43,963 bases of DNA from Acetobacteraceae bacterium (GTDB lineage Bacteria; Pseudomonadota; Alphaproteobacteria; Acetobacterales; Acetobacteraceae): positions 36,462 through 80,424 of the forward strand of contig PKZM01000020.1 of assembly GCA_003133065.1 (NCBI GenBank), in the 5' to 3' direction. Each line of letters begins with the position of its first letter. Positions within the stretch are counted from its first letter, which is position 1. Positions 4,711 to 41,608 of the stretch are shown here, one piece after another. The position numbers and the translations under genes are program-made. A model generated the notes under the pieces. That model made no database searches. It was not told the DNA's origin and was given only the letters and a program-made list of their open reading frames with translations.

Positions 4711-4789
4711 AAAAGTTTTTTGCTTCTTTTTTTCAAAAAAGAAGGGCTTTCTTTTTGTTCTTTTTTGAAAAAAGACCCAAAAAACGTTT
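4711..4789. repeat. AT-rich hairpin repeat locus 1 (tail-to-tail arms)
   Basis: Reverse arm aaaagttttttgcttctttttttcaaaaaagaag (4711-4744), 12 nt linker, forward arm gttcttttttgaaaaaagacccaaaaaacgttt (4757-4789). Confidence 0.9.
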
Positions 4790-4840
4790 ACGTGGTGGTA
4801 CCCGGCTCGCGGGCCGCAGCGAGTCTGGTGGAGGGGTGTC

Positions 4841-6229
4841 ATGACCGTCAGCGTTTTTGATCTGTTCAAGTTGGGGGTGGGCCCCTCCAGCTCGCATACG
4901 ATGGGGCCGATGACGGCAGGGGCGCGGTTCGCGGGGCTGTTGCGGGCACGCGCGACGCTGGCGCGGGTGGCGCGGGTGGAGGTGACGCTCTACGCGTCCT
5001 TGGCGCTGACCGGGCGGGGGCATCACACGGACCGCGCGGTGATCCTGGGGCTGATGGGGTGGGAGCCGGCGCGGCTGGATCCGGATGAGGGCGAGGCGTC
5101 GCTGGCAGTCGTGGAAGCCACGCAGATTTTGCGGCTTGGCGGCACGCACGACATCTCCTTTGAACCGGCGCGCGATATCCTATGGGCGGGGCGCCAGCGC
5201 CTGCCGCAACATCCCAACGCGGTGAGTTTCGCCGCCTTCGATGAGGCGGGTGAGATGCTGGCCGCGCGCACCTGGTTTTCGATCGGCGGCGGGTTTGTGC
5301 GCGACGAGGACGAAATCGGGCGCAACGATCCCGACGAGGCGGGCGCGGCGGTGCCGCATCCGTTCGAAAACGCCGAGGATCTGCTGGTGCGGGCGGGGGC
5401 GGCGGGGATCAGCATCGCGCGGCTGATGTTCGAGAACGAGGTGTCCCGCCAGCCGGAGGCAGAGGTTGTGGCCGGGCTGGACCGGATCCATGCGGCCATG
5501 GAGGCCTGCATCGACCGCGGCATGCGCCAGGATGGCGTGCTGCCCGGCGGGCTGGCGGTGAAGCGGCGCGCGCTGCAGATCCGGCGGGCGATCCTCGCAC
5601 GGATGGAGCGCAACGTATCCGACCCGCTCGCGGCGATGGATTGGGTCAATCTGTGGGCAATGGCGGTGAACGAGGAGAATGCGGCGGGCAGCCGCGTGGT
5701 GACGGCGCCGACCAACGGAGCCGCCGGGATCGTGCCGGCGGTGCTACGCTATTACGACCGGTTTCATGCGGGCACCGCGGAGGGGCGGCGGTCGTTCCTG
5801 CTGACGGCGGGGGCGATTGGCGCACTCTATAAGAGGAATGCGTCGATCTCGGGGGCGGAGGTGGGCTGCCAGGGTGAGGTGGGGGTTGCGTGTTCAATGG
5901 CGGCGGGCGGCCTGGCCGCGGCGCTGGGGGGCAGCCCGGCGCAGGTGGAAAACGCGGCCGAGATCGGCATGGAACATAATCTGGGACTGACCTGCGATCC
6001 GATCGGCGGGCTGGTGCAGATCCCGTGCATCGAGCGCAATGCGATGGGGGCGATCAAGGCCATCGATGCGGCGCGGCTGGCCTTGCTGGGGGATGGGCAG
6101 CATTCCGTGTCGCTGGACAAGGTGATCGCGACGATGAAGCGAACCGGGGAAGATATGAACGAGATTTACAAGGAGACCTCGCTGGGCGGACTGGCGGTGG
6201 GACTGGCTGTCAACCGGGTGGAGTGCTAA
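4841..6229 (+). CDS. sdaA: L-serine ammonia-lyase (Fe-S type)
   Basis: [82 protein letters not shown]. Confidence 0.97.
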
Positions 6230-6401
6230 CAACTTGAGGTTGTAAACGGCGGGCGCGTATCAGCAATGCGCCGGACGGCGTGGATTTGAGTAAAGTCTCC
6301 AATTTTAGACTTGCTAATTCTTAAAAAAGGATTACACCGACCCTCAGCCAAGTCGTTCCGTGGGCGTCGCCGCGGATCGCCGTTTCTGAGGAGTCAGCCG
6401 C

Positions 6402-7244
6402 GTGACCAGTCATCTCTCTTTCAGCCGTCTCCTGATCGTAGCGGCAGCCATGGGCGTGGCAGCGCTCGCGCCGGCGCGTGCCAGCACGTTCACCGGCATC
6501 ACGAACGGCAATTTCGCGAGCAATACGGCTACGTACAACAACAATGGTACGATTATTGGCGCGAGCGTTACGAATTCCGACCTGACCGGCTGGAACATCA
6601 CGGGTTGCCTGGCGAACTGCCAGGGCATCCTTGCCAGCACGGACACATTTGCTGCGCTCGCGCTCGGCAACGTGGGCACGGCGGGCATTCAGTTTAACCT
6701 GCCCGATCTGAACGGCAACATTCCGATGTGGACCGGTCCGACCGGCACCGCGCCCAGTGCGCAGGCGTTTACGGAAGATGCCGGCACACAGACCGCCGCG
6801 CTATACCAGACCGTGAGCAATCTCACCGTTGGTAACACCTATACGCTGAACTTCTCGCAGGCGACGATGCAGGCGAACGAGACGGGCGAGTCGCCCGCCG
6901 GGTTCACCGCCGCCTGGAACGTGTATTTCGGCACCGGCCCTGCCTCCAACGCATACTCTGCCCCCACGGCCGTGGGCTCGACCATGGTCAACCCGTATCA
7001 GGGGAGCTCGAGCTGGGTTGCGCAGACGATGACGTTCACGGCCACCGCGGCCAGCGAGACGCTCTCGTTCTTCGCCACGGGCAGCAACGGCCAGCCCCCG
7101 TTCCTGCTGCTGGATGGAATTTCGCTGACGCAGAACACCTCCGGCGGGACATCGGTGCCGGAGCCGGGCAGCATAGCACTCCTCGGCGCTGGGCTTGTCG
7201 GGTTCATGGTGATCCGTCGCAGCGGCAAGAACGCGGCCGTCTAA
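6402..7244 (+). CDS. PEP-CTERM sorting domain surface protein
   Basis: N-terminal signal peptide, Thr/Asn/Gly-rich body, C-terminal VPEPGSIALLGAGLVGFMVIRR; GAGGAG RBS before GTG. Confidence 0.93.
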   Translation: MTSHLSFSRLLIVAAAMGVAALAPARASTFTGITNGNFASNTATYNNNGTIIGASVTNSDLTGWNITGCLANCQGILASTDTFAALALGNVGTAGIQFNLPDLNGNIPMWTGPTGTAPSAQAFTEDAGTQTAALYQTVSNLTVGNTYTLNFSQATMQANETGESPAGFTAAWNVYFGTGPASNAYSAPTAVGSTMVNPYQGSSSWVAQTMTFTATAASETLSFFATGSNGQPPFLLLDGISLTQNTSGGTSVPEPGSIALLGAGLVGFMVIRRSGKNAAV

Positions 7245-7278
7245 GCCGCAATAACGCCCCTCCCAGAACCGGCTGTTT

Positions 7279-7313
7279 GGCATGGCAGGAGCCCGCGTGG
7301 CTCCTGCCATGCC
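7279..7313. terminator. Perfect 15-bp GC-rich stem-loop after the PEP-CTERM gene
   Basis: ggcatggcaggagcc-cgcgt-ggctcctgccatgcc; no clear U-tract. Confidence 0.6.
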
Positions 7314-7525
7314 GCGTTGTGCGCAGCCTGTGCCGCAAGGTCGGCATTGGCACAGCCGCCACGCTGCGCGGCTAGGCCATCATGGGCGGTTGCAATCCCC
7401 TACGGCGCCCAGGCTGCGGTCGAAAATCGATGCGACGCCAATTTTGTAACAAATCGGTATCGCTCGGGAATCCGGGGCCGCATTGGTCGTTAGCGGCCTC
7501 GTCGATCACAAACCGGAGTGCCCAA

Positions 7526-7708
7526 GTGTTACCGAGTTCAAGACAAAATGTGGCCGCCCTGCTGGCCGCGTTGAGCGTGGCGGGGCTTCTGACGGCCTGC
7601 AGTTCCAGTTTTGGTGGCGGGTCCTCGCCGCCGGCCAACACCACCGTGGTGATCCCGCCCGGCGCGAGGGTGGTATGCAGCAACGGCAACCCCCCACCCT
7701 GCCAATAG
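7526..7708 (+). CDS. Small lipoprotein (about 60 aa)
   Basis: GGAG 7 nt before GTG 7526; hydrophobic stretch then lipobox LTAC; C-terminal CSNGNPPPC. Confidence 0.7.
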   Translation: MLPSSRQNVAALLAALSVAGLLTACSSSFGGGSSPPANTTVVIPPGARVVCSNGNPPPCQ

Positions 7709-7731
7709 TACTCTGCCAGTAATACAGGGCC

Positions 7732-8394
7732 TTAGGGCGGTATCGGCAAGCATTGGCGGGCGGCCGCAGCGGCCCGCCACATCGTTTGGCCGGAGAGGAT
7801 TGCGCCGTCGGGGCTGACAGGCAGGCCGGCCTGATGAAGGGCCGCCGCAACCCAGGTATTGCAGGTGTGGGCCAGCGTGTACTCGCTCGTCGCGACATAG
7901 AAGAGCGCGCCGGGGAAGGCGCCTGGGCCCACCAGCAGAGGGGCACCGGCTTTGTCGTGGGCGAGATCGTTCCAGATGAACGCGGAAAGCTGTGTGGCGC
8001 CACCCTGTGGCAGGCTCAGACTCACCGAGTCGCCTGGGCCATAGGCGGCCTCGGGCGAGGTGGACAGGCCGATCGCCTCGATCACGGCGGGGCCGGGGAA
8101 CGGACCGAGCAGGTATTCGCTGGCACGGTCGGCGCGGGCGGTCATGAAGGTGCGCTTGCCATAGCCGAACATGATCGTGCGGGCGCCGGGGAAAATGTCG
8201 CGGAAGATGGTCAGGGGGCCGTGCAGTTGGTCCGCTGGAATGCCGATTTCGGTATGCCAGCCGCGGCTGAGGACGGTGATCGTATCGGCGGGCGTGGCGT
8301 GGCACCCGCGCGCCTGCGGCGGCGGGGCGGCGCTGCACGCGGCCAGCCAGGCCGGCAGCGCGACGCGGACCGCAGCGGCCGCTTGTGTGGGCAA
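7732..8394 (-). CDS. DUF2459-like protein, probable lipoprotein
   Basis: LAAC lipobox-like, VLSRGWHTEIGIP, FGYG, YTLAHTCNTWVAAAL. Start uncertain (TTG 8394); the 5' extension to 8922 overlaps the opposite gene. Confidence 0.75.
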   Translation of the reverse strand: MPTQAAAAVRVALPAWLAACSAAPPPQARGCHATPADTITVLSRGWHTEIGIPADQLHGPLTIFRDIFPGARTIMFGYGKRTFMTARADRASEYLLGPFPGPAVIEAIGLSTSPEAAYGPGDSVSLSLPQGGATQLSAFIWNDLAHDKAGAPLLVGPGAFPGALFYVATSEYTLAHTCNTWVAAALHQAGLPVSPDGAILSGQTMWRAAAAARQCLPIPP

Positions 8395-8459
8395 GCGCCA
8401 TGCGCTTCCGTGGCGTGGCGGAATCGGTAATCTCCCTCGATCGTTGTGTGCGGGGTTGC

Positions 8460-9077
8460 ATGTATCAGCCGGCGGCGTTTGTGGAAGATCGGCTGGAGGT
8501 GATGCATGGCCTGATGCGTGACCATCCCCTGGCCATGCTGGTAACGGGCGGCGCGCTGGGGCTGATGGCCAACCTGATCCCTTTCCAGATTCATCCGGAG
8601 CTTTCGCCGAAGGGCACGCTGCGGGCGCATCTGGCGCGCGCCAACGGGCAACTGGCCGCACTCGCCGAGGGCGGCGAGGCGATGGTGTTGTTCCAGGGGC
8701 CGCAGGCTTACGTGTCCCCCTCCTTGTATGCGTCCAAGCGGGAGCACGGGCGCGTGGTACCGACCTGGAATTATGTGACCGTGCATGCGTGGGGCGTGCC
8801 GCGCCTGATGGACGATGCGGTGTGGATGCGGCGCCAGGTGGGCGCGCTGACCGACCGCCACGAGGCTGGGCGCGCGGACCCTTGGGCGGTGGAGGATGCG
8901 CCGGCGGATTTCGTGGCCGCACAGATGCGCGGGATCGTGGGGCTGGAAATCGACATCACGCGGATCGAGGGGAAGTGGAAGGCGAGCCAGAACCGGCAGC
9001 ACGCGGATCGGGCGGGGGTGGCGGCGGGGCTGGGGGGCGAAATGGGAGAGGTTGTCAAGGAAGGCCTTCTTTTTTGA
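8460..9077 (+). CDS. FMN-binding negative transcriptional regulator (PaiB-like)
   Basis: MYQPAAF, HLARAN, FQGPQAYVSPSLY, VPTWNYVTVHAWG, GKWKASQN. Stop codon lies inside repeat locus 2. Confidence 0.93.
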   Translation: MYQPAAFVEDRLEVMHGLMRDHPLAMLVTGGALGLMANLIPFQIHPELSPKGTLRAHLARANGQLAALAEGGEAMVLFQGPQAYVSPSLYASKREHGRVVPTWNYVTVHAWGVPRLMDDAVWMRRQVGALTDRHEAGRADPWAVEDAPADFVAAQMRGIVGLEIDITRIEGKWKASQNRQHADRAGVAAGLGGEMGEVVKEGLLF

Positions 9078-9176
9078 AAAAAAGAAGCAAAAAACTTTTG
9101 ACTTATGGCGTACGCTTCCGGCGCGGTCCGCGACAGCGCGCGCAAAAGTTTTTGGGTCTTTTTTTCAAAAAAGACC
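9066..9176. repeat. AT-rich hairpin repeat locus 2 (inverted pair, 44-nt core)
   Basis: Forward arm 9066-9099, core 9100-9143, reverse arm 9144-9176. Confidence 0.95.
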
Positions 9177-9426
9177 GCTTACTTTCTCTATCCCGTAGGC
9201 ATTCGCTGCGCAGGCGCTGCCCTAAATCATTTGTAAGCGCGTTTGATGCAATCTTCTTGGTGCAGAGCAAAAGCTTTTCACGTTAGGCTGACGTGTTGAC
9301 CTGAGCGACTCCAAGGATGCGGTGGCCGGCGGGGGCAGGCACCAGAGTGCATCGATCAGACACTGGACCTGCTTGCGTTCGGACCCAGATTTGCTTCCCA
9401 CGGGATTCGCACGCTGGAGATTTGAC

Positions 9427-11373
9427 ATGACCAAGCCGGACGACATTTTCCGCCTGCATGCTACCCTCCACGAGCGTACCCGCGAGGTGGAGATGAGCCT
9501 CGTGGAATATCTGGACGCGTGCCGTGCCGATCCGCTGTGCTACGCGAGCCCGGCGGAGCGCATGTTGCGCGCCATCGGCGAGCCTGAGGTGATCGACACT
9601 TCCCGCGATCCGCGGATGAGCCGGCTGTTCCTCAATCGCACCATCCGCATCTATCCTGCTTTCTCCGAGTTCCACGGCATGGAAGAGACCATCGAGCGGA
9701 TCGTCGGCTTCTTCCGGCATGCGGCGCAGGGCCTGGAGGAGCGCAAGCAGGTGCTCTATCTGCTGGGCCCGGTGGGTGGCGGCAAATCCTCGCTGGGTGA
9801 GCGGCTGAAGGCGCTGATGGAGCGCGAGCCGATCTACGTGCTGAAGGCCGGCGCGCATCTGAGCCCGGTGTTCGAAAGTCCGCTGGGGCTGTTCGAGCCG
9901 GAGACGATGGGCGAGGCGCTGGCTGAGCGCTATGGCATCCCCAGGCGCGTGCTGACCGGCATTGCCAGCCCTTGGGCTCTGAAAAGGCTGGAGGAATTCG
10001 GCGGGGATATCCAGAAATTCCGGGTGGTGAAACTGTTCCCATCGCGCCGCAAGCAGATCGCGATCGCCAAGACCGAGCCGGGGGACGACAACAACCAGGA
10101 TATTTCCGCCCTGGTCGGCAAGGTGGATATCCGCAAGCTGGAGAGCTTTTCCCAGAATGATCCGGATGCCTACGGGTTTTCCGGCGGCCTGAACCGCGCC
10201 AACCAGGGCATCCTGGAATTCGTGGAAATGTTCAAGGCGCCGATCAAGATGCTGCATCCGCTGCTGACGGCGACGCAGGAAGGCAACTACCTGGGCACCG
10301 AGAACATCGGCGCCATTCCCTACCAGGGCATCATCCTGGCCCATTCCAACGAGGCGGAGTGGCAGAGTTTCCGCAACAACCGCACCAACGAGGCCTTCCT
10401 CGACCGTGTGAGCGTGGTGAAGGTGCCCTACTGCCTGCGGGTGACCGAGGAAGCCAGGATCTACGAGAAGCTGATCAGCGGCTCGGCCCTGGCCGAGGCG
10501 CCCTGCGCCCCGCATACGCTGGAGATGCTGGCGCGGTTCGCCGTGCTGTCGCGCCTGAAGCCGCATGCCAACTCGCGGCCCTTCGCGAAGATGCGGGTCT
10601 ATGACGGTGAGAATATCCGCGAGACCGATCCCAAAGTTAAGACAATGCAGGAGTATCGTGACGCCGCCGGCGTGGACGAGGGCATGGATGGGGTCTCCAC
10701 CCGTTTTGCCTACAAGGTGCTCTCAGCCACGTTCAACCACTCCTCCAGCGAGGTCGCGGCCGATCCCGTGCATCTCATGTATGTGCTGGAGCAGGCGATC
10801 CGCCGCGAGCAGTTTCCGCCCGAGACCGAGGCGGCTTACCTCGCCACCATCAAGAGCGAGTTGGCATCGCGCTACGCCGAGTTCATCGGCAACGAGATCC
10901 AGAAGGCATATCTGGAGAGCTATGGCGATTACGGCCAGAACCTGTTCGATCGTTACCTGGATTACGCGGATGCCTGGATCGAGGACCAGGACTTCAAGGA
11001 CCCCGATACCGGACAGATGCTGAACCGGGAGTTGCTGAATGCGGAGCTGACGAAGATCGAAAAGCCAGCCGGTATCGCCAACCCGAAGGATTTCCGTAAC
11101 GAGGTTGTGAAGTTCGCGCTGCGCACCAGGGCTGCCAATGGGGGGCGGAATCCGTCCTGGACCAGTTACGAGAAAATTCGTGAAGTTATTGAAAAGCGGA
11201 TGTTCAGCCAGGTCGAGGACCTTCTGCCGGTCATCAGCTTCGGCTCGAAGAAGGACAACGAGACGGAGAAGAAGCACAACGACTTCGTGGCCCGGATGGT
11301 CAGCCGGGGCTATACGGAGCGCCAGGTTCGCCGGCTGGTTGATTGGTACATGCGCGTGAAGCAATCCGCATGA
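9427..11373 (+). CDS. prkA: PrkA/YeaG family AAA+ serine protein kinase
   Basis: YASPAERML, GLEERKQVLYLLGPVGGGKSSL (Walker A), EPGDDNNQDISALVGKVDIRKL, EFVEMFKAPIKMLHPLLTATQEGNY; GGAG RBS before ATG 9427. Confidence 0.97.
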   Translation: MTKPDDIFRLHATLHERTREVEMSLVEYLDACRADPLCYASPAERMLRAIGEPEVIDTSRDPRMSRLFLNRTIRIYPAFSEFHGMEETIERIVGFFRHAAQGLEERKQVLYLLGPVGGGKSSLGERLKALMEREPIYVLKAGAHLSPVFESPLGLFEPETMGEALAERYGIPRRVLTGIASPWALKRLEEFGGDIQKFRVVKLFPSRRKQIAIAKTEPGDDNNQDISALVGKVDIRKLESFSQNDPDAYGFSGGLNRANQGILEFVEMFKAPIKMLHPLLTATQEGNYLGTENIGAIPYQGIILAHSNEAEWQSFRNNRTNEAFLDRVSVVKVPYCLRVTEEARIYEKLISGSALAEAPCAPHTLEMLARFAVLSRLKPHANSRPFAKMRVYDGENIRETDPKVKTMQEYRDAAGVDEGMDGVSTRFAYKVLSATFNHSSSEVAADPVHLMYVLEQAIRREQFPPETEAAYLATIKSELASRYAEFIGNEIQKAYLESYGDYGQNLFDRYLDYADAWIEDQDFKDPDTGQMLNRELLNAELTKIEKPAGIANPKDFRNEVVKFALRTRAANGGRNPSWTSYEKIREVIEKRMFSQVEDLLPVISFGSKKDNETEKKHNDFVARMVSRGYTERQVRRLVDWYMRVKQSA

Positions 11374-11479
11374 TGCAATAGAGTTTGCAACCTTGTGCGT
11401 TTCCGCATCAAATTCGCTTTGGGGATGGACGAGGGCCGGCGGCTTGCGTTGTCACCCCATGGGTCGCACATGACTGACG

Positions 11480-12802
11480 TTGGAAGTTGAGTTCCTAAAT
11501 TTGGACATTATCGACCGCAGGCCTAATCCGCACGGGAAAAACCTGGAAAACCGCCAGCGGGTGATCGCACGGGCACGCGCCGCAGTGGCGCGGGCCACAC
11601 GGGCGGCGATCGATGGCGGCACGCTGCGCGAGATCGGGCGGGACCAGGCGGTGACCATCCCCTCCGACACGTTGCACGAGCCGAGCTTTCACAGCGTGTT
11701 CAGCAAGGGACAACGCCAGATCGTGCTCTCCGGCAACAAGGTATTCTCCGCCGGCGACAGGCTGGCTCGGCCGCCTGGCGGCAGCGGCGGGGGCGGGGGC
11801 GGCGATGGCAGCGGCAGCGGCGATGGTGAGGCGCAGGACGGGTTCCGGTTCGTGCTCACACGAGATGAATTCCTGGACCTGTTCTTCGAGGATCTGGAAT
11901 TGCCGGACCTGGTGAAAAGCCAGATCGTGGCCACCGAAGCCATGACTCCGGTGCGGGCCGGTATCAGCGTGGATGGCTCCCCATCCCAGATCGACATGGG
12001 GCGCACGATGCGCCAGTCCATGGCGCGGCGGATCGGGCTGCGGCGGCCCAAAACACCCGATGTTCTGGCGCTGGAGATCGAGATCGAGCGGCTGGAGGCG
12101 GAAGCGCGCGACGGCAGCGATCGCGCCGAGCCATTGGCGGCGCTGCGGGGGGAGCTGGAAATGGTTCTGCGGCGCATGGCGCGGGTGCCGTGGATCGATC
12201 CCGTGGATCTGCGGTACCGGCGTTATACCCAGGCGCCCAAGCCCACGGCCCGGGCGGTGATGTTCTGCCTGATGGATGTGTCGGGATCGATGAGCGAATC
12301 GATGAAGGACCTGGCCAAGCGCTTCTTCCTGCTGCTGCACGTGTTTCTGGAGCGGCGCTACAAGCGGGTGGAGCTGGTGTTCATCCGGCATACGGAAACC
12401 GCCGAGGAAGTGGACGAGAACACCTTCTTCACCGATCCGCGCACCGGCGGCACGGTGGTTTCCACCGCTTTCGCTGAATTCGTGCGCATCCAGCGGGCGC
12501 GCTTCCCCGACGATAGCTGGAACATCTACGCCGCCCAGGCCTCCGACGGCGATAATTCCAGCATGGATACGCGCCAGGCCATGTCCATGCTGGAGGGACA
12601 GATCCTGCCCGTGGTGCAACATTTCGCCTATATCGAGGTGGCAGCCTCCGCCGCGCATATCCGCGGCGAGAGCGATCTGTGGCGCGGCTATGCGCCGCTC
12701 TCGCAACGGGAGCCGAAATTGGCCATGCGGCGTGTGGCTGAGCCGAAGGATATTTTCCCGGTGTTCCGGGAGTTGTTCGGGCGGAAGGTGGCGACGCCGT
12801 AA
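11480..12802 (+). CDS. yeaH: YeaH/YhbH (UPF0229) vWA-domain protein
   Basis: IIDRRPN, EFLDLFFEDLELPDL, AVMFCLMDVSGSM, WNIYAAQASDGDN; follows prkA. Start may be TTG 11501. Confidence 0.95.
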   Translation: MEVEFLNLDIIDRRPNPHGKNLENRQRVIARARAAVARATRAAIDGGTLREIGRDQAVTIPSDTLHEPSFHSVFSKGQRQIVLSGNKVFSAGDRLARPPGGSGGGGGGDGSGSGDGEAQDGFRFVLTRDEFLDLFFEDLELPDLVKSQIVATEAMTPVRAGISVDGSPSQIDMGRTMRQSMARRIGLRRPKTPDVLALEIEIERLEAEARDGSDRAEPLAALRGELEMVLRRMARVPWIDPVDLRYRRYTQAPKPTARAVMFCLMDVSGSMSESMKDLAKRFFLLLHVFLERRYKRVELVFIRHTETAEEVDENTFFTDPRTGGTVVSTAFAEFVRIQRARFPDDSWNIYAAQASDGDNSSMDTRQAMSMLEGQILPVVQHFAYIEVAASAAHIRGESDLWRGYAPLSQREPKLAMRRVAEPKDIFPVFRELFGRKVATP

Positions 12803-12856
12803 GAAAGAGAGAGAGAGAGACTCTTCTTTTTTGAAAAAAAGAAGCAAAAAACTTTT
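12803..12856 (+). repeat. AT-rich hairpin repeat locus 3 (solo arm with (GA)7 tail)
   Basis: gaaagagagagagagagact followed by cttcttttttgaaaaaaagaagcaaaaaactttt (12823-12856). Confidence 0.93.
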
Positions 12857-12873
12857 GGTCCTTGGGGTGTCGG

Positions 12874-14400: not shown

Positions 14401-14521
14401 GGAAGGTCTTCTTTTTTGAAAAAAGAAGCAAAAACTTTTATCCTTTGCGCCCGCTTCCGGAAAGTCCCACACCAACAGTCTAAAGTTTTTTGCTTCTTTT
14501 TTTCAAAAAAGAAGTCCTTCC
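14401..14521. repeat. AT-rich hairpin repeat locus 4 (inverted pair, 42-nt core)
   Basis: ggaaggt+arm 14401-14439, core 14440-14481, reverse arm+tccttcc 14482-14521. Confidence 0.95.
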
Positions 14522-15136: not shown

Positions 15137-15140
15137 ATAG

Positions 15141-15264
15141 GGAAGGTCTTCTTTTTTGAAAAAAAGAAGCAAAAAACTTTTGACTGTTGGCGTCTAACTC
15201 TCCGGAAGCGCGCGCTAAGGGATAAAAGTTTTTTGGTTATTTTTTTCAAAAAAGAACACCTTCC
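15141..15264. repeat. AT-rich hairpin repeat locus 5 (inverted pair, 42-nt core)
   Basis: Forward arm 15141-15181, core 15182-15223, reverse arm 15224-15264; lies between convergent genes. Confidence 0.95.
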
Positions 15265-15269
15265 TTCAG

Positions 15270-17620: not shown

Positions 17621-17763
17621 AGAAAGAGTGTTCTTTTTTGAAAAAAGAACCAAAAAACTTTTACCCGTTCGCCTTCACCGGGCACCCGACACAGCAGTCA
17701 CAGCGCGTACCTGAAAAGATAAAAGTTTTTTGGTTCTTTTTTTCAAAAAAGAACACTCTTTCT
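17621..17763. repeat. AT-rich hairpin repeat locus 6 (inverted pair, 58-nt core)
   Basis: agaaagagtgttcttttttgaaaaaagaaccaaaaaactttt (17621-17662) and its near-perfect reverse complement (17721-17763). Confidence 0.95.
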
Positions 17764-22417: not shown

Positions 22418-23296
22418 CTAGAGTGGGGTGGAAACGGGATGCAGCGGGGGCGCCGGCCGTGGCAGCAGGGCAAGTCCCCGCCACCACAGCTTCAGCGCCT
22501 CCCAATGGATGGCGGCGAGTACCTTTATGCCAAGGAGCGGCGTCGCCAGGAACCGTGCCAGCAGCGCGCCGTCCGTCAGGTTCTGCCGCGTGCCAGCAAA
22601 GGCCGTGGCGATCAGCGTGCCTGCTTCATCGGACGCGGTGATCGCCAGCGACACGGAAGGCCCCGGCGGCTTGACCCGGAAACGATAGGTCAGGCGCATC
22701 GGCATGAACGGAGAGACAAAAAACTGTTTCTCACAGCTTTGCCGGACCACGCTGCGTTCGGCCGTCTGGGCCGGGATCAGGTAGCAATGTTTTTCGCCGA
22801 AGGTGTTGCGCACCTCGTAGATCATCGCGAGCAGCGCGCCGTCAGGGGCGTGGCAGAAGAACACGCTGATGGGATTGAAGGCGTGGCCGAGGATACGCGG
22901 CATGCACAGGATTTGGATGGGGCCGCAGCGTTCGCCCAGGCCTGCGGCGGCGAGGTGCTGCTGCACCCAGGGGCGTAGCCCGCCCGGCGCGCCGTTGCCG
23001 TGGTCGCGTTCGCGGAAGGAAAACAGATTGAACCGCTCATGCGAGAACAGGCGGAGCCGGGCCGACAGCATCGGCAGCTCATCCAGATCGAACAGCATGT
23101 AGAACACGCGATAGCGCAGCCGATGCCTGACCGGCCTCAACCGCTGATGCACCACGCTGCCATCATAAAACGCGCTCACCGCATGTTGCGGATCCAGACA
23201 GGCAAAAGTTTTTTGCTTCTTTTTTTCAAAAAAGAAGAAAGAATCTTCTTTTCTGAAGAAAAGAAGCAAAAGACTTTTACCTATTGTACCCGTCAT
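22418..23296 (-). CDS. DUF1365 protein (UfaO-like); homology begins at GTG 23179, ORF extends in frame through repeat locus 7
   Basis: SAFYDGSVVHQRLRPVRH, MPRILGHAFNPISVFFC, YEVRNTFGEKH, KQFFVSPFM, IHWEALKLWWRG. Confidence 0.9.
   Translation of the reverse strand: MTGTIGKSLLLLFFRKEDSFFFFEKKKQKTFACLDPQHAVSAFYDGSVVHQRLRPVRHRLRYRVFYMLFDLDELPMLSARLRLFSHERFNLFSFRERDHGNGAPGGLRPWVQQHLAAAGLGERCGPIQILCMPRILGHAFNPISVFFCHAPDGALLAMIYEVRNTFGEKHCYLIPAQTAERSVVRQSCEKQFFVSPFMPMRLTYRFRVKPPGPSVSLAITASDEAGTLIATAFAGTRQNLTDGALLARFLATPLLGIKVLAAIHWEALKLWWRGLALLPRPAPPLHPVSTPL
23204..23278. repeat. AT-rich hairpin repeat locus 7 (tail-to-tail arms)
   Basis: Reverse arm 23204-23237, 7-nt linker aaagaat, forward arm cttcttttctgaagaaaagaagcaaaagactttt 23245-23278. 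Confidence 0.95.
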
Positions 23297-26931: not shown

Positions 26932-26965
26932 AAAAGTTTTTTGGTGCTTTTTTTCATAAAAGAAC
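26932..26965 (-). repeat. AT-rich hairpin repeat locus 8 (degenerate solo arm)
   Basis: aaaagttttttggtgctttttttcataaaagaac. Confidence 0.85.
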
Positions 26966-27036: not shown

Positions 27037-27112
<76 letters not shown>

Positions 27113-29596: not shown

Positions 29597-29736
29597 GGAA
29601 GGTCTTCTTTTTTGAAAAAAAGAAGCAAAAAACTTTTGTCCGGACGCCGTCCCGGCCATCCGACGCGCACACCACATTGCGCATCAGAACAGGTAAAAGT
29701 TTTTTGGTTCTTTTTTTCAAAAAAGAACTCTTTCCT
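29597..29736. repeat. AT-rich hairpin repeat locus 9 (inverted pair, 57-nt core)
   Basis: Forward arm 29597-29637, core 29638-29694, reverse arm 29695-29736; fills the whole gap between two convergent TAA stops. Confidence 0.95.
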
Positions 29737-30060: not shown

Positions 30061-30071
30061 GCGCCGGCCGC

Positions 30072-32072: not shown

Positions 32073-32081
32073 AAGGAAGGC

Positions 32082-32196
32082 AAGGTCTTCTTTTCTGAAG
32101 AAAGAAGCAAAAGACTTTTGACTGGCTGTCGCGGACCGAGCCAGCAGCGCGCGCCAAAGGGCAAAAGTTTTTTGGTTCTTTTTTTCAAAAAAGAAC
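32082..32196. repeat. AT-rich hairpin repeat locus 10 (inverted pair, 43-nt core)
   Basis: Forward arm 32082-32119, core 32120-32162, reverse arm 32163-32196. Confidence 0.95.
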
Positions 32197-33151: not shown

Positions 33152-33160
33152 CAGGACTTA

Positions 33161-34486: not shown

Positions 34487-37191
34487 TGCCGCCCCGCCCG
34501 GCTGCCGCCAGCGTCCCGCCCAGCGTGCTTGCCGCCAAGATCGTCCTGTGGATCGAGGCGCTCACCCTGGCCGCCTGGCCCGCGAGTGCTGCCCTGGCCA
34601 CCCTGCTCGCCATCGGCCTGCTTGGCCTGCCCGCATTGCTGCCCGCCGCCCTGCGCATCGCTCTGCTCGCCGCGGCCGCGGCCGCCCTGGTTCTGCTGGT
34701 GGCAAGCGGTGCCGCCCGCTTCCGCCGCCCCGAAGATGCGGATGCCGAGCGCCGCCTGGAACAGGATTCCGGCCTGCTGCACCGCCCGTTTGCAACCCTG
34801 CGCGATGCACCCGCCGAAACGGCCCAGCCTGCTCAGCTGCATCTGTGGCGCCTGCACCAGCTCCGCGCCCGCGCGGCCATTGCCGGTATCCGGCTTGGCC
34901 CGCCGCGCCCGCTGCTGGCGATGCACGATCCCTTCGCGCTGCGTGCCGCCGCTTTGCTGGTGCTCGTTTCCGCCGCCATCATCGCCGGCCCCCAGGCGCC
35001 CGGCCGGCTTGCCGCCTTCCTGTTCCCTGGCCTGCCGGACGTGCTCAGCTCCGCCCACCCCACCATCCAGGCCTGGTTGGAGCCGCCCGCCTACACCGGC
35101 CTGCCGCCGATCTTCCTGCCGCCGGCCGGCGGAGACGTGACCGCCCCCACCGGGTCACGCCTGACCATCAGCATCACCGGCGTGCAGCGGCGCCCCGCAC
35201 TCTCCATCGCGGGCCATGCGGCGAAGCTGGAGCCGATCGGCGCCGACAGTTTTTCCGCCACCGCCGCGCTCACCAGCGGGGGCATCATCAGCATCGACCG
35301 CTTCTTCTCCACCCTGGCAAGCTGGCACCTGACGCTACTGCCCAACGAGGCGCCGGTGGCCGGCTGGCCCGCGCTGCCCGGCCGCGCGGGCACCTCGCTC
35401 TCCACGAAACTGCCCTGGCAGGTACAGCAGCGCTGGGGCGTGGCCGCGCTGCTGGCCGAACTGCGCCCGCAGGGCCATCCGGCCTTGCCGCCCCTGGTCG
35501 TTCCGGTGCCGTTGCCGGGCACGCCCAAATCCGCCACCGGGTCGGCCACCACCGACCTCTCCGCCAATCCCTATGCGGGCCTCACCATGACCGGCCGCCT
35601 GGTGGCGCGGGATGTTTCGGGTCAGACCGGCCAAAGCCCGCCGGTTGATTTCGTGCTGCCCGCCCGCACCTTCCGCCATCCGCTCGCCCGTGCCATCGCC
35701 GACTTGCGCCGCCGGCTCGCGCTGAACCCCGATCACCCGCAGGATGCAGCCGACGATCTGACCGCCCTGGCCGAGGCCCCGCAGGTGCAGCCGGTGCGCG
35801 GCCTGGCGCCCGCCGCCATTACCCTCAATATGGCGGCGATCGCCGCCGTGCTCACGCCCGATCCGAACCATCCGCAGCTCGGCCCCGCCGCCATCGCCCA
35901 GGCGCAGGGCCGGCTATGGACACTCGCTTTGGCTCTGGACGGCGCGCTCCCCGATGCCTCCGCCCGGGCGCTGGCCGAAGCGCGCGAGGACCTCAAGCAC
36001 GCTTTGGACGATCGCGCACACGGCCGGCTCACCGACCGCGACCTCGCCAAGCGCCTGGACGCGCTGCGCCAGGCGCTGGACAAACGCCTGTCCGATATCG
36101 CCCGCCAGGCGATGCAAAAAGGCGCCATCCAGAAATTCGACCCCAACACCCAGCACCTGTCCTCGCCGGCGATGGACCGGGCGATCCGGGAACTGCGGAA
36201 GGCGCTGGAGGAAGGCCGCATGGCCGATGCGCGGGACCGCATGGCCGAACTCGAACGCATGATGGACCAGCTCAACAACGCCCACATCATGACGCAGGAG
36301 GAGGCCCGCCAGCAGCGGGAGCAGGCCAAGCGCGGCCGCCAGCAAATGGGGGCCGCCCAGGATCTGGTGCAGCGCGAATCCAAGCTGTTGGACCACGCCC
36401 AGGGCCGCGCGCCGAATCTTGCCCCGCAGATTCCCGGCCTGCCGCAGTTCCAGAACTTCGATTTCAATAACCCGCAAGGCAACGGCGATCGCAACATGGA
36501 CCCCGGCGCCCCGGACCCGGGCACGCAGGATCCCACGGAAAGCCAGAATTCCCTTGGCTCCGCCGAATCTCAGCCCGGCGCCCCGCCCAGCGGGGGCATG
36601 GCCGATTCGGCGCCAGCCACCCCGCAAACCGCGCCGGCGCCGCCGGCCAAGCCCACCCAGGCCCAGGATGCCCGTACCCAGCGCGCCCTTCACCGCGCGC
36701 TCGATGCGCTGAAGGACACGCTCGCCCAGTCCGGCCACCAGCCGCCCCATAGCCTGGATGATGCCAGCCAGGCCATGCAGGACGCGGCGCGTGCGCTGGC
36801 CGAGCGGGAGGACCCCGCCGCCCGCGATGCGATCGCCCGCGCGATTGCAGCACTTCAGCAGGGTGCACAGGACATGTCGCGTCAGATGGGCCGGCAGTCC
36901 GGGTCCGCCGGCATGCAACTCAGCCTGGCACCCGGCGGCCAGGCGGGCCAGCAGGGCGATGAGGGTTCCGATGATCCCGGCGATGGCCAGGGCGGCCATA
37001 AGCGCGACCCTTTTGGACGCCAGGTGGATGGCAACGGCACCACGGCGGACGACCCCGATCTGCGGGTGCCCGATGAAATGGAGCAGGGCCGCAGCCGCGC
37101 CATCCAGGAAGAGCTGCGCCGCCGTGGCGCGGACCGGGCGCGGCCTAAAGGCGAACTGGATTACATCGATAGGTTGCTGAAGCCGTTTTAG
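34486..37191 (+). CDS. DUF4175 / TIGR02302-like protein
   Basis: ERRLEQDSGLLHRP, DPFALR, AWLEPPAYTGLPPIFL, FRHPLARAI, RDPFGR, RAIQEELRRR, ELDYIDRLL; coupled to lysA (TGATG). Confidence 0.9.
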   Translation: MPPRPAAASVPPSVLAAKIVLWIEALTLAAWPASAALATLLAIGLLGLPALLPAALRIALLAAAAAALVLLVASGAARFRRPEDADAERRLEQDSGLLHRPFATLRDAPAETAQPAQLHLWRLHQLRARAAIAGIRLGPPRPLLAMHDPFALRAAALLVLVSAAIIAGPQAPGRLAAFLFPGLPDVLSSAHPTIQAWLEPPAYTGLPPIFLPPAGGDVTAPTGSRLTISITGVQRRPALSIAGHAAKLEPIGADSFSATAALTSGGIISIDRFFSTLASWHLTLLPNEAPVAGWPALPGRAGTSLSTKLPWQVQQRWGVAALLAELRPQGHPALPPLVVPVPLPGTPKSATGSATTDLSANPYAGLTMTGRLVARDVSGQTGQSPPVDFVLPARTFRHPLARAIADLRRRLALNPDHPQDAADDLTALAEAPQVQPVRGLAPAAITLNMAAIAAVLTPDPNHPQLGPAAIAQAQGRLWTLALALDGALPDASARALAEAREDLKHALDDRAHGRLTDRDLAKRLDALRQALDKRLSDIARQAMQKGAIQKFDPNTQHLSSPAMDRAIRELRKALEEGRMADARDRMAELERMMDQLNNAHIMTQEEARQQREQAKRGRQQMGAAQDLVQRESKLLDHAQGRAPNLAPQIPGLPQFQNFDFNNPQGNGDRNMDPGAPDPGTQDPTESQNSLGSAESQPGAPPSGGMADSAPATPQTAPAPPAKPTQAQDARTQRALHRALDALKDTLAQSGHQPPHSLDDASQAMQDAARALAEREDPAARDAIARAIAALQQGAQDMSRQMGRQSGSAGMQLSLAPGGQAGQQGDEGSDDPGDGQGGHKRDPFGRQVDGNGTTADDPDLRVPDEMEQGRSRAIQEELRRRGADRARPKGELDYIDRLLKPF

Positions 37192-37210
37192 TTTCAGGGA
37201 AGAAAAGAAC

Positions 37211-37321
37211 GTTCTTTTTTTGAGAAAAAGACCCAAAAAACTTTTGATACTTTGTAAGCGTTACCGACCGGGAGGCCACAAAAAGTCAAAAGGTTTTTGG
37301 GTCTTTTTTTCAAAAAAGAAG
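37211..37321. repeat. AT-rich hairpin repeat locus 11 (inverted pair, 42-nt core)
   Basis: Forward arm 37211-37245, core 37246-37287, reverse arm 37288-37321. Confidence 0.92.
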
Positions 37322-37565
37322 AGTTACTCCTTACTTTTTCCAAATATCCGGCAGTATCCTGCCGTGCCGTTCACATCTTTGTGACTTTCTGCGATGCCTT
37401 AGCATGCTCATGTATGTAGAGCGCAAGGTGATCCTGCCGACAACGCGCCCCCAGGTTGCAAATAATCCAAGTATCTCCATGAAATCCGCAGGGAAGTGTT
37501 CATTTTAACCCATATTGCGTCTATGATGCGCGGATCGGCTGCCGACTACTCGGCTGCGGGGAAAC

Positions 37566-39854
37566 ATGCTGGCTAGACTCGTCAGGCGGTTCAGTCCGGC
37601 CACATTGATCGCCTATGGCGGGTGGGCCCTGCTGGCGCTTGTACTGCTTGGCGGCACGCTGATCTCCCTGCACCAGTCCCGCAACGCGCAGATCAAGGCC
37701 GTGCTCGCCCGCGCCGGGGCCGGTTCGGCGGCCATCGAACAAACCATGCTGCGGGCGTTCGAGGCGTTGCAGACATTGCAGACCCTCGCTCAGACCCGGC
37801 TGCAACTGGTCGATACCGGCAATAGCGACGGCATTCAGGCGATTGACGCCCAGTTGAAGGACACTGTTCTGCGCCACCGCTTCGGCATCCGCGACGCCCT
37901 GATCGTGCGCCGGGGGTGGCCGGACTGGTCGAGCGAGACCGGCCACCTCGATCATCCGTTGGATCCCAGTGTGACCAACGCTCCCCCGGAAGGGGCCGAT
38001 GGCATGCGGCTGGACAGCCCTACCATGAGCAGCCCTGGCGGCGCCGGCGGTGCGGCCGACGCCTGGCTGTTCAAGACCACCTGGCCGCTGCGTGATCAGA
38101 GCGGGGCGCCCGCCGGCTGGCTGATCGTCTGGATCGATCCGCTCGCCTGGTCGGAGATGATCAGGCCGCTGACCTCCGGCCCCGGCGCCATCAGCATGGT
38201 CCAGCGCCGCAGCGACGGAGCCTTCCTGGCGCGCACGGTCAATCCCCGCATGGCGATGCGTGAACACCCGTTGACCACCGACCCTGCCTTCGCCCGCGCG
38301 GTGCGCGAGGGCAGCGGCACGATGCAGGATAGCAGCGGCGGCGTGGACAGGCTGATCGGCTTCCGCGCGCCTCCCAATGTGCCGATCGTGATCAGCCAGT
38401 CCTTCGATACGGAGATGTCGCTGGCCGATTTCACGCGGCTGCGCCGGATTGTGCTGGCGGTGGTTGGCGTGCTCGTGATCGGCGCCCTGGTGGGCACACG
38501 GCTGATCCTGTCGAACTACCTGCTGCGCCGCCGCCTGGGCGAGCAGGCGATGCTCGATCCGCTCACCGGCCTGTTCAACCGCCGTTTTTTTACCGACATC
38601 ATGTCGCGCCGGTTCCAAATCGCCCGCCGCTCCGGCCTCTCGGCTGCCGTGCTGCTGGTGGATCTGGACGGGTTCAAGCAGGTGAACGACACGCGCGGCC
38701 ACCCCGTTGGCGATGCCCTGCTGCGCCAGGTGGCGGAGCGCCTGAGCCATTGCGTGGGTGCGGATGACGTGGCCCTGCGCCTGGGCGGTGACGAATTCGC
38801 CATCGTGCGGCTCTGCCACCAGCAGCGCCGGGATGCCACGGCTTTGGCACGCTTCATCGTCAGTGCGCTCTCCAAGATATATGAGGTGGATGGCTACCAT
38901 CTGCGCATCAGCGCCAGTGTCGGCGTGGCGCTGTATCCGGCCGGCGGCGAGCAGTTGAACGATCTGCTGCGCAGCGCCGATATCGCGCTGTATTTCGTCA
39001 AGGCCGATGGCGGGGACGCCTACCGTATCTTCGATCCCGCCATGGAGGAGACGGTGCGCACCCGCCGCGCGCTGGAGATCGACCTGCGCGAGGCGTTGGT
39101 CCGCAACCAGTTGGAGGTGTATTTCCAGCCGCTGGTGCAGTTGGAGCCGCGGCGTGTTTGCGGGTTCGAGGCGCTGCTCCGCTGGCACCACCCCGTGCTC
39201 GGCATGGTGATGCCCGGCCGGTTCATCCCCATCGCCGAGGAAACAGGTCTGATCGCCAGCATCGGCGAATGGGTGCTGCGCCAGGCATGCCGCGAAGCGA
39301 CCAACTGGCCGCCTAACACGCGCATCGCCGTCAATCTCTCGCCGGTGCAGTTCGAGCGGTCGGACATCGTGGATATCGTCGCTTCCATCCTGCGCGAAAC
39401 CCGGCTTTCGCCCGGCCGGTTGGAGTTGGAGATTACCGAGGGCGTGGTGATGCGCGATATCGGCGACGTGCTGGCCACCATGCGCCGCCTGCAGGGCCTG
39501 GGCGTTCGCCTCGCGCTGGACGATTTCGGCACGGGCTATTCCTCGCTGAGCTACCTGCGCAGCTTCCCCTTCGACAAGGTGAAGATCGACGCGAGCTTCC
39601 TGGCCGACCTGCACGGCGATGGCGGCACCATCATCCGCGCCGTGCTCGGCCTGTGCGGCCATCTGCACCTCGATACGCTGGTCGAGGGCGTAGAAACCGA
39701 AGAGCAGCTTCATTGGCTGCGCAACGAGGGCTGTACCGAAGTGCAGGGCCATCTGTTCAGCCCGCCACGCCCGGCCGGTGGCGTTAACGAAATCATCGCC
39801 AACGTTGCAGCCCGCATCCCCGGCCTGCCCGCCCGAACGATGGTGCGCTCCTAA
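37566..39854 (+). CDS. Membrane-bound Cache-like sensor GGDEF-EAL protein
   Basis: Two TM segments, DPLTGLFNRR, LRLGGDEF (no RxxD), FEALLRW, DDFGTGYSSLSYL, EGVET. Confidence 0.93.
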   Translation: MLARLVRRFSPATLIAYGGWALLALVLLGGTLISLHQSRNAQIKAVLARAGAGSAAIEQTMLRAFEALQTLQTLAQTRLQLVDTGNSDGIQAIDAQLKDTVLRHRFGIRDALIVRRGWPDWSSETGHLDHPLDPSVTNAPPEGADGMRLDSPTMSSPGGAGGAADAWLFKTTWPLRDQSGAPAGWLIVWIDPLAWSEMIRPLTSGPGAISMVQRRSDGAFLARTVNPRMAMREHPLTTDPAFARAVREGSGTMQDSSGGVDRLIGFRAPPNVPIVISQSFDTEMSLADFTRLRRIVLAVVGVLVIGALVGTRLILSNYLLRRRLGEQAMLDPLTGLFNRRFFTDIMSRRFQIARRSGLSAAVLLVDLDGFKQVNDTRGHPVGDALLRQVAERLSHCVGADDVALRLGGDEFAIVRLCHQQRRDATALARFIVSALSKIYEVDGYHLRISASVGVALYPAGGEQLNDLLRSADIALYFVKADGGDAYRIFDPAMEETVRTRRALEIDLREALVRNQLEVYFQPLVQLEPRRVCGFEALLRWHHPVLGMVMPGRFIPIAEETGLIASIGEWVLRQACREATNWPPNTRIAVNLSPVQFERSDIVDIVASILRETRLSPGRLELEITEGVVMRDIGDVLATMRRLQGLGVRLALDDFGTGYSSLSYLRSFPFDKVKIDASFLADLHGDGGTIIRAVLGLCGHLHLDTLVEGVETEEQLHWLRNEGCTEVQGHLFSPPRPAGGVNEIIANVAARIPGLPARTMVRS

Positions 39855-39898
39855 CGCGCGCCGCGCCGGCAGCGCCCTTGGGTCGAGCAAGAAAGATT

Positions 39899-39931
39899 CT
39901 TCTTTTTTGAAAAAAGAAGCAAAAAACTTTT
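39899..39931 (+). repeat. AT-rich hairpin repeat locus 12 (solo arm plus core remnant)
   Basis: cttcttttttgaaaaaagaagcaaaaaactttt followed by gactatggcgt, which resembles the start of the locus 2 core (gacttatggcgt). Confidence 0.93.
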
Positions 39932-40017
39932 GACTATGGCGTGTCGCGACATCTGCGAATGCACGCTTGGTGGTGAGCAAGGCGCGGGGTAACGTCGGGC
40001 AAAAACGGAAACGCCCA

Positions 40018-41484
40018 ATGTCCCGCCAGCTCGATCACTATCCCGATCCTGCACGCCGCCGCAGGCAGCTCGCCCTCGTCGTGCTCATTACCATCGCGCT
40101 CTACTATGCCCTCTATGTGGGTGGCGGCGTGACACCGCTGGTGATGCGCGACCTGCATATGCCCTTCACCTACCTCGTCGGCCTGCTTGCCATCGCCAAT
40201 GCGGTCGGGGCTTTTGCCTCGCTGCTGGCCGGGCTCACTGACCGGTTCGGCCGCGCCAACCTGGTCGTCTACGGGCTCCTCATCGTCGCCCTGCTCACCA
40301 TCTTTGCCGTGCCCGCCGTCCACACACGACTGGGCTATGCCCTGGTCAGCATCGCGGTCGGCTTCGTGGAGGGGATTATCCTGGTCGCCACCCCCGCCTT
40401 GATCCGCGATTTCTCGCCGCAGATCGGGCGCGCGACCGCTATGGGTTTCTGGACCATCGGCCCCGTGCTCGGCAGCCTTCTCACCAGTGCCGTCAACAGC
40501 GCAACGCTGCCGACCAACCCCGATTGGCGCACCCAATTTTTGTATTGCGGCTATATCTGCGCCGGCGTCTGGGTGCTGGCACTGTTGTTCCTGCGCGAGC
40601 TGGCACCCGCCCTGCGCAACCAGGTCATGGTGACGGAACGCGACCGTCTGATCAACGAGGGGCGCGCCCGCACCCAAACCCGCGCGCCCCATCCGTGGCG
40701 CCGCCTGCTGCACCCGCGGATCATTCTCTCAGCCCTGGGTGTGTCGCTGCTGCTGCTCGTGTATTTCACCACGGTGGCCTTCGGTGTCGTCTATCTCGTG
40801 ACGGTCTTCGGCTTCACGCCGGCCCGTGCCAACGCGCTGCTCAACTTCGCCTGGGCCGCCAACGCCCTGGCCCTGATCGGTGCCGGGGTGTGGTCGGATG
40901 TGCTGGGTGTGCGCAAACCCTTCATGCTCGCCGGCGGCATCGGCGCGGGGCTGCTCGTGGGCGTGTTCATGGGGCCGCTCAGCCCACCCGGCCTGCACCC
41001 CGGCTTGCCCGCCATGGCGGTGATCGGCATCTGGATCGCAGCCCTGCTGGGGGCGGCCTACGCCACCTGGATGGCCAGCTTCACCGAAACCATCGAGGCA
41101 CAGGACGCGGCCCTCACTGCCACGGGCCTGGCGATCTGGGGCTGGATCCTGCGCCTGGTCGTCACCGCGTCCTTCCTCGCTTTGCCGCATGTCGTGACCA
41201 CCGTCACCCCTTTGGTCGAGGCGGGGCCCGCCATCGACGCTTTCAAGGAGCTCTCGGCCCGCCACGCACCCATCCCGCCGGACCTGGCCGCCCGCATGGC
41301 CGAGATCGTCCACGCCGCGACCAGCACAGCCGCGCAATGGCAAGACTGGTTCGGCATCTGCGCCCTGGGGGCAGCGGTGTTTGTTGCCCTGATTTTCACC
41401 ATGGGCGGCTATTGGAGCCCGCAGCGCGCGCGGGCCGAACGGGCCGCGCATGAGGCGTGGGTTGATGGGCAATTGGCGGACTGA
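40018..41484 (+). CDS. MFS transporter
   Basis: About 12 TM segments, motif A GLTDRFGR and GVWSDVLGVRKP. Confidence 0.92.
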   Translation: MSRQLDHYPDPARRRRQLALVVLITIALYYALYVGGGVTPLVMRDLHMPFTYLVGLLAIANAVGAFASLLAGLTDRFGRANLVVYGLLIVALLTIFAVPAVHTRLGYALVSIAVGFVEGIILVATPALIRDFSPQIGRATAMGFWTIGPVLGSLLTSAVNSATLPTNPDWRTQFLYCGYICAGVWVLALLFLRELAPALRNQVMVTERDRLINEGRARTQTRAPHPWRRLLHPRIILSALGVSLLLLVYFTTVAFGVVYLVTVFGFTPARANALLNFAWAANALALIGAGVWSDVLGVRKPFMLAGGIGAGLLVGVFMGPLSPPGLHPGLPAMAVIGIWIAALLGAAYATWMASFTETIEAQDAALTATGLAIWGWILRLVVTASFLALPHVVTTVTPLVEAGPAIDAFKELSARHAPIPPDLAARMAEIVHAATSTAAQWQDWFGICALGAAVFVALIFTMGGYWSPQRARAERAAHEAWVDGQLAD

Positions 41485-41497
41485 AGAAAGGAAGAAT

Positions 41498-41608
41498 GTT
41501 CTTTTTTGCAAAAAAGAACCAAAAAACTTTTGCCTATTGCATATGCTTCCGGCGAGTCCGCGACAGGACAACCAAAGTCTTTTTGGCTCTTTTTTTCTCA
41601 GAAAAGAA
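41498..41608. repeat. AT-rich hairpin repeat locus 13 (inverted pair, 42-nt core)
   Basis: Forward arm 41498-41531, core 41532-41573, degenerate reverse arm 41574-41608; lies between convergent genes. Confidence 0.92.

Follow-up and report, generated by a model that had tools for sequence, protein, structure and literature searches.

What keeps hundreds of short, dispersed repeats alike in a bacterial chromosome when no enzyme that moves them can be recognised? The question is raised by a 43,963-nt stretch of contig PKZM01000020.1 from a member of the Acetobacteraceae (hereafter, the window), which carries 23 copies of an A/T-rich sequence of about 34 bases, the arm, at 13 loci. A sequence-only reading of the window had described the arms as hairpins of a replicating element resembling REPINs and miniature inverted-repeat transposable elements (MITEs). 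Here, we report that three tracts of each arm change together, in the manner predicted for an intrastrand triple helix, and that arms at old sites are rewritten in place. The explanation that we favour, with slightly better than even confidence, is a non-coding repeat that is kept and re-copied for its three-stranded shape through a trans-acting factor and copy repair.

The genome analysed (G000) comprises 4.19 Mb in 230 contigs, with 64.6% G+C and 89.9% completeness; genes were called with our own predictor, and other G-numbers (G001, G008, G010 and so on) denote related genomes. An arm search reproduces the 23 arms and 13 loci of the sequence-only reading, in the same partition into eight head-to-head (inverted) pairs, two tail-to-tail pairs and three solo arms; a stricter pattern finds 22 arms. 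With a strict pattern, the window gives 20 matches and 200 of 200 shuffles of two-base blocks give none, and reversal of the first 40 contigs of G000 leaves three matches against 370 in the real sequence. Genome-wide, 1,818 fuzzy matches reduce to 1,808 arms at 1,175 loci once overlaps are removed: 459 head-to-head doublets, 168 tail-to-tail pairs, 544 solo arms and four other clusters. Only 14 of these loci fall within predicted genes. The elements make up about 2.6% of the genome and occupy about 31% of the predicted intergenic junctions (1,083/3,462), so that whatever maintains the arms shapes G000.

Three-way covariation in the arm

Arms are numbered with the base preceding TTC as position 0. 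The parts of one arm of the window, used as the model, are as follows.

9057..9064, plus strand: outer purine tail of NAAG-like units
9066..9075, plus strand: 5' stem strand, positions 0-9 (4-base foot and 6-base pyrimidine tract)
9076..9077, plus strand: GA loop, positions 10-11 (GA in 1,424 of 1,451 parsed arms)
9078..9087, plus strand: 3' stem strand, positions 12-21 (purine tract and foot), in Watson-Crick covariation with 9-0
9088..9094, plus strand: invariant C (22), then the third tract (23-28), which mirrors 17-12 and is the predicted third strand of the triplex
9095..9099, plus strand: conserved CTTTT end adjoining the spacer

The arm thus consists of a pyrimidine tract, a complementary purine tract and a third tract that mirrors the purine tract. 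Pairing of positions 0-9 with 21-12 around the GA loop is shown by compensation: among 1,661 arms, the foot pair 0-21 is C-G in 916 and G-C in 615, other feet exchange the pairs at 1-20 and 2-19, and purines and pyrimidines swap freely within foot pairs, whereas the tracts remain pure. Beyond C22, the third tract follows a mirror rule, a change from T-A to C-G within the tracts being accompanied by G at the mirror position of the third tract. In the same arms, columns 7-14-26 read T/A/A in 1,437 cases and C/G/G in 178, and columns 8-13-27 read T/A/A in 1,392 and C/G/G in 197; a variant of columns 9-12-28 is present in 71 arms in 800 kb of G008. Pooling of 2,219 arms, with 13,314 columns, after removal of 20 that differed from every type by more than two changes, gives 548 triple changes, 17 double changes (CAG 7, CGA 5, TGG 5) and 133 single transitions. 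Perfect variant stems are matched by an exactly mirrored third tract in 331 of 356 arms of G000, 140 of 148 of G008, 37 of 40 of other genomes and 34 of 35 of viral contigs. Tract lengths also shift jointly, from 5/5/5 to 8/8/8. Stem compensation upholds the hairpin of the sequence-only reading, which had missed the mirror-image third tract that the ratio of 548 triple to 17 double changes reveals.

This covariation is the sequence signature of a predicted intrastrand triplex of the BoxC/PIT/TMECO class, although the arm is A/T-rich and has its stem extended by 4 bp. Classes II and IV of ITxF are defined by three successive stems of 6-15 nt, separated by loops of 1-6 nt and able to form C-G-G / T-A-A triads. 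With stems of 6 nt, loops of 2 and 5 nt and covariation compatible with triads, the arm falls within this definition. It is likely to fold as a 10-bp hairpin bearing a six-triad intrastrand triple helix. Mirror images are not the product of any copying process known to us, which makes selection on three-stranded pairing likely, and we are fairly confident that selection acts on a triple-helical fold. Arm-to-arm pairing fails to explain the third tract because variant arms mostly partner all-T arms: doublets of two variants number 2 of 318 in G000 (6.7 expected) and 4 of 194 in G008 (17.9 expected). The outer purine tail was considered as a second third-strand piece and rejected, given that it does not covary with the foot. 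These tails of NAAG-like units adjoin stop codons, among which TAA is over-represented (280/584 at outer tails vs 887/3,564).

In the classification of Holder et al. (2015, PMC4666352), one strand of the arm belongs to class II (purine motif) and the other to class IV (pyrimidine motif), the purine motif being stabilised by G-G-C triads and the pyrimidine motif by T-A-T triads. The covariation fits both motifs alike. Since the arms are mostly A/T and the stability of the pyrimidine motif rests on T-A-T triads, we lean modestly towards the T-rich strand as the one that would fold, as a pyrimidine-motif triplex (T.A-T, C+.G-C; class IV). The same choice is favoured by the one-base link, which could cross the major groove with the covarying foot kept paired. 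Loop 1 of an H-type pseudoknot crosses the major groove; here, one nucleotide would bridge four base pairs. A purine-motif fold on the other strand would need the four foot pairs opened.

Doublets and solo arms

Spacers of 461 doublets fall into two classes, of 40-48 nt (355) and 54-66 nt (106). Modal lengths in G000 and G008 are 42 and 45 nt for the short class and 57 and 60 nt for the long class, so that the classes lie 15 nt apart in both. Departure from consensus per site amounts to 1.7% in arms and 29% in 42-nt spacers. Short doublets preferentially join arms with unlike feet (252/318 in G000, 157.9 expected; 179/194 in G008, 97 expected). Doublet arms are better conserved than solo arms, 592 of 913 being exact vs 275 of 513 (p 4e-6). 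Half a spacer is retained by 289 of 532 solo arms, compared with 9 in shuffles, which identifies many solo arms as doublet remnants. In tail-to-tail pairs, the commonest 5-nt gaps are GACTC and GAATC (46/163), a GANTC site (cf. 23237-23245 in the window); GANTC is the CcrM methylation motif of Alphaproteobacteria.

Gain, loss and rewriting at orthologous sites

Between G000 and 800 kb of G008, 166 orthologous junctions could be compared: 26 are occupied in both, 9 in G000 only, 34 in G008 only and 97 in neither. At 7 of the 34 junctions occupied only in G008, the corresponding genes of G000 overlap, which points to gain. The alignment of orthologous loci that the sequence-only reading had suggested thus reveals empty sites, for example between the DUF444 and spoVR genes in G008.

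In a closer clade, G018 was compared with G001, G190, G007 and G004. Among the comparisons listed, which share loci and hence are not independent, sites are mostly shared, the arm type differs in 13 of 47 typed orthologous comparisons and in 5 of the 25 that retain an orthologous spacer (4 of them clear), and 12 of 27 spacer pairs are at most 57% alike between flanks that are 81-92% alike. A full three-base switch of type is seen beside a spacer 84% identical. In G007, both arms are gone at 6 of 10 sites, some having decayed towards G/C-rich sequence and others having lost the interior with the tails left; this is possibly a lineage that has lost upkeep. Arm type and spacer change in place at orthologous sites, and gain and loss occur at others. 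Together, these comparisons indicate old sites that other copies serve to rewrite and that decay when upkeep fails.

Distribution

Exact arms are present in 24 of 24 congeners, with 2 to 1,448 copies each, a several-hundredfold spread within the genus; together with the 1,808 arms of G000, this answers the proposal of the sequence-only reading to count arms genome-wide and in relatives. They occur in 34 of 150 genomes of the family and in none of 16 genomes from other families of the class; an order-level sample yielded only members of the same family. Among the matches listed, named records with an exact arm are mostly Acetobacteraceae or Rhodospirillales (80 of 156 loci). Exact arms were also found on three plasmid records and in 85 viral-contig stretches, whose neighbouring genes resemble, by eye, prophage structural genes (terminase, portal, capsid, baseplate-like) in related prophage-like clusters. 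A scan against Rfam gave no family at gathering score except one tRNA, and at E values up to 1, four loci gave matches only below that score. In the literature searched, which mostly excluded subscription journals, we found no account of this arm family or of covariation in bacterial triplex repeats.

The REPIN-like organisation that had been proposed is borne out by the fixed spacer classes, the better-kept doublet arms, presence and absence at orthologous junctions and this range of copy number. What the replicating-element reading missed is that old sites are rewritten in place.

How the arms may be maintained

In the explanation proposed here, the triplex fold would be the likely signal through which a trans-acting factor acts on DNA, and repair from another copy would rewrite occupied sites and occasionally fill new ones. 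We infer that the triplex forms in the cell and acts as DNA; a cut-and-copy step is likewise presumed. Given selection on a triple-helical fold, copying at the DNA level by a trans factor appears reasonably probable. A narrower version, which we advance only tentatively and think rather unlikely in full, has a pyrimidine-motif triplex with a pseudoknot-like one-base crossover read by a factor other than RAYT, DUF559 or GxxExxY proteins, possibly a core host protein, that rewrites more than 1,000 chromosomal sites in place. If true, the proposal would give comparative proof that living bacteria form and read a DNA triplex, and would add a new route of repeat maintenance. Three-way compensation is the type of evidence that proves base triples in RNA, found here in a dispersed genomic repeat, and the natural variants are ready-made test oligonucleotides.

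Several observations weigh against this explanation. The 548 triple changes trace to perhaps four or five events; the copies thus descend from few events, yet these involve at least three columns and several length changes. Six triads, mostly A/T, may be marginal for folding, and the substitution spectra of single and double variants give no signal for the folding strand. Long-spacer doublets lack the bias towards unlike partners (37/99, 38.8 expected). All 461 doublet spacers are distinct, with nearest neighbours typically 5-7 differences apart, and thus give no sign of a recent burst. Near-identical strains, represented by assembled public contigs, offer no clean empty site among the joints listed, and relatives with empty sites are too distant to delimit the element or show a target duplication. 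Profile searches and inspection of neighbours found no cognate enzyme for the arms. Finally, doublets are predicted to fold as long rods, in which both arms would be tied up at equilibrium, and their closeness to stop codons and preference for convergent gaps fit an RNA role.

It is from these last features that the best-surviving alternative draws, a host-selected RNA element acting as a two-way terminator or 3'-end protector, in which the T-rich form of the arm could adopt a U.A-U triple helix where mRNAs end, with conversion among copies keeping the arms alike. We regard it as improbable. Of the doublet ends that face a stop codon, 457/529 lie within 20 nt of it, and occupancy is highest in convergent gaps (287/512), compared with tandem (680/2,420) and divergent (116/530) ones. 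Doublets fold strongly as RNA (z -3.2 to -8.4), and pyrimidine-motif triplexes are described as possible in RNA (PMC4666352). A solo arm, however, folds no better than shuffles (z +1.3, +0.5), solo arms have no preferred strand where the flanking genes run the same way (91:95 for G21 arms, 49:63 for C21 arms), elements lie within operons and at gene junctions where relatives have overlapping genes, and copy number differs several hundredfold within the genus. The missing strand preference and the weak solo RNA fold favour a role at the DNA level while still allowing one in RNA. In transcript order, the G21 arm of doublets lies upstream in 95 cases vs 72. Replication-strand polarity was also considered and rejected, short doublets being split 104:105 when contigs were oriented by GC skew.

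More doubtful is the possibility that there is no single intrastrand triplex and that the arms form either two separate duplex-DNA structures (H-DNA from the purine mirror repeat and a cruciform from the hairpin) or a slipped Watson-Crick pairing of the third tract with the pyrimidine tract. Positions 10-28 are indeed nearly all purine on one strand, and in each variant, part of the pyrimidine tract has complementarity to the third tract as well. Slippage, however, needs a new register for each variant and fails to predict the base count after the G, whereas the mirror register is constant across all variants, length variants included; two structures are also less parsimonious than one.

A classical REPIN, moved in trans by a RAYT, DUF559 or GxxExxY nuclease, would suit the REPIN-like statistics, and G000 encodes RAYTs (on C40, C155 and C87) as well as GxxExxY proteins. 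RAYT matches are commoner in arm-positive than in arm-negative genomes (14/34 vs 18/116; Fisher p 0.003, kin not being independent). We nevertheless consider it quite unlikely. The RAYTs of G000 are bracketed by 31-32 nt GTAG inverted repeats, and at 30 RAYT loci, an arm is nearby at three and arms bracket the gene at none, which lends no support to a link between RAYTs and the arms and answers the search for a RAYT flanked by the same arms that had been suggested. No RAYT was found in four arm-rich congeners (G008, G006, G016 and G001), nor in 6 of the 14 family genomes having at least 30 arms. In G008, the arm-richest genome, which is 99% complete in one contig, the RAYT (NF047646, PF01797) and DUF559 (PF04480) profiles are all unmatched, and a classical REPIN is largely refuted there. 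PF01797 gave no match in G000 and matches in 2 of 26 genus genomes; it missed RAYTs that NF047646 found, so that the choice of profile matters. Matches to the GTAG-type repeat number 84 in G000.

The other two nucleases fare no better. DUF559 is unmatched in G000 and present in 2 of 26 genomes of the genus and 28 of 151 of the family, in 3 of 34 arm-positive vs 25 of 116 arm-negative genomes; among 30 DUF559 loci there is one with an arm, at a distance of about 1 kb. G/C-rich TMECO-like triplex repeats flank DUF559 at 9 of the 30 loci, and also in G020; this link does not extend to the A/T-rich arm family. GxxExxY genes (PF13366), found in 14 of 26 genus genomes including G000, have repeats of their own, and single arms lie near 3 of the 16 loci listed, none of which is bracketed. 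In G000 and congeners, short inverted tandem repeats of the ACCACGAAG/CACGAAG type bracket these genes and overlap their ends; the repeat has 32 matches in G000. GxxExxY with its repeats is a third nuclease-repeat pairing, beside RAYT with GTAG repeats and DUF559 with triplex repeats.

PF01541 has one match, in a 686-aa frame. Among arm-flanked genes of G000 of up to 330 aa, no parent transposase was recognised by eye from the translations, and inspection of the neighbours listed for viral, low-copy-genome and metagenome loci, again by eye, showed no recurrent nuclease. An arm-flanked gene that we take to be MmcB-like is explained by the 31% junction occupancy. Loss of SbcD as a permissive factor proved uninformative, with SbcD found in 1/34 arm-positive vs 11/116 arm-negative genomes. 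In the window, no nuclease or transposase family was found in the 24 of its 31 predicted proteins that were scanned against Pfam, in agreement with the sequence-only reading.

That short-read assembly made the arms uniform or mis-joined them is hardly credible: 33-nt arms are longer than the 31-letter words used for public contigs, such contigs break at arms, and G000 lies in 230 contigs, but G008, a single contig, has 594 arms of this anatomy in 800 kb together with a variant of its own, and orthologous elements recur in independent genomes, which refutes an artefact for the family. In practice, arms break short-read assemblies and seed spurious peptides.

Relation to known repeats

BoxC/PIT/TMECO repeats, as presented in PMC4666352, share with the arms the pyrimidine, purine and mirror tracts in one strand (class II, or class IV on the other strand), an intergenic location, no strand bias, no known mobilising gene, inverted pairs of unlike types (TMECO type A with type B) and a copy number that varies widely among relatives. 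The same source reports triplex folding in vitro, no protection in vivo and no mobilising activity, and describes BoxC/TMECO as G/C-rich with 9 triads and a 3-base second loop, with 23 copies in E. coli K-12 and at most 143 for TMECO. The arm, in contrast, is A/T-rich and has 6 triads; its first loop spans 2 bases, its stem is extended by 4 bp, and one linker base stands where those repeats have a 3-base second loop. It numbers 1,808 copies, and three-way covariation is shown for it here. The TMECO sequence pattern has no match in G000. The main text of PMC4666352 does not mention Acetobacter, Acidiphilium or Alphaproteobacteria. The ITxF database may already hold raw entries of the arm motif, because its algorithm would detect a motif with such a 6-nt stem. 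Holder et al. (2015) cite Hoyne et al. (2000) on repeats of the BoxC/PIT/TMECO type.

With REPINs, the arms share inverted doublets, discrete spacers, an extragenic location and better conserved doublet arms (Bertels and Rainey 2011, PMC3116915), and with REPINs and GTAG/CGTC REPs a long hairpin and ends that abut or supply stop codons. They differ in having a third mirror tract, no arm-bracketed RAYT and no tag: neither feet nor tails contain GTAG, GGAG or CGTC, which extends the earlier remark that a GTAG/GGAG foot is missing. CGTC repeats are reported as missing from Acetobacteraceae by Di Nocera et al. (2013, PMC3733652).

Like MITEs such as Correia and ERIC, the elements are non-coding, 110-150 bp long, of high copy number and with inverted ends. 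Unlike in MITEs, the interior is far less conserved than the ends and is replaced in place, the outer boundary is a variable purine tail, and neither a target duplication nor a parent transposase could be shown for the arms; a reading as MITEs is not supported. The earlier statement that no named family fits holds in that the TMECO pattern and the GTAG tag are absent; it gives way in that the mirror tract ties the arms to described intrastrand-triplex repeats. In sum, the arm family combines BoxC/TMECO-like anatomy with REPIN-like organisation and is a member of neither by sequence or enzyme criteria.

Elements of the window

4711..4789: tail-to-tail pair of a minus arm (4711-4743) and a plus arm (4758-4789), flanked by gene 2739-4703 and a serine dehydratase gene
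9067..9175: head-to-head doublet, short spacer, G21 and C21 arms, upstream of prkA
12824..12856, plus strand: solo arm between the DUF444 and spoVR genes
14409..14513: doublet past the spoVR stop; G008 and G010 also have doublets here, of other arm types
15149..15256: doublet in a convergent gene gap
17631..17753: doublet with a long-class spacer
23204..23278: tail-to-tail pair with the triple-compensated column-8 variant as its plus arm (23246-23278)
26932..26964, minus strand: solo arm upstream of tRNA gene 27037-27109
29605..29727: doublet, long spacer class, between convergent genes
32088..32195: doublet, column-8 variant on the left and all-T type on the right
37212..37320: doublet, arms partly decayed
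39900..39931, plus strand: solo arm
41499..41608: doublet between convergent genes, right arm decayed

The DUF444-spoVR junction presents three states, being empty in G008, holding the solo arm in G000 and a full doublet in G010. Upstream of prkA, gene 8460-9077 has its predicted stop in the TGA at 9075-9077, which reaches into the arm loop. Genome-wide, the arm-loop TGA is the predicted stop of the upstream gene at 61 doublet ends, so that arms add short C-terminal tails or spurious extensions.

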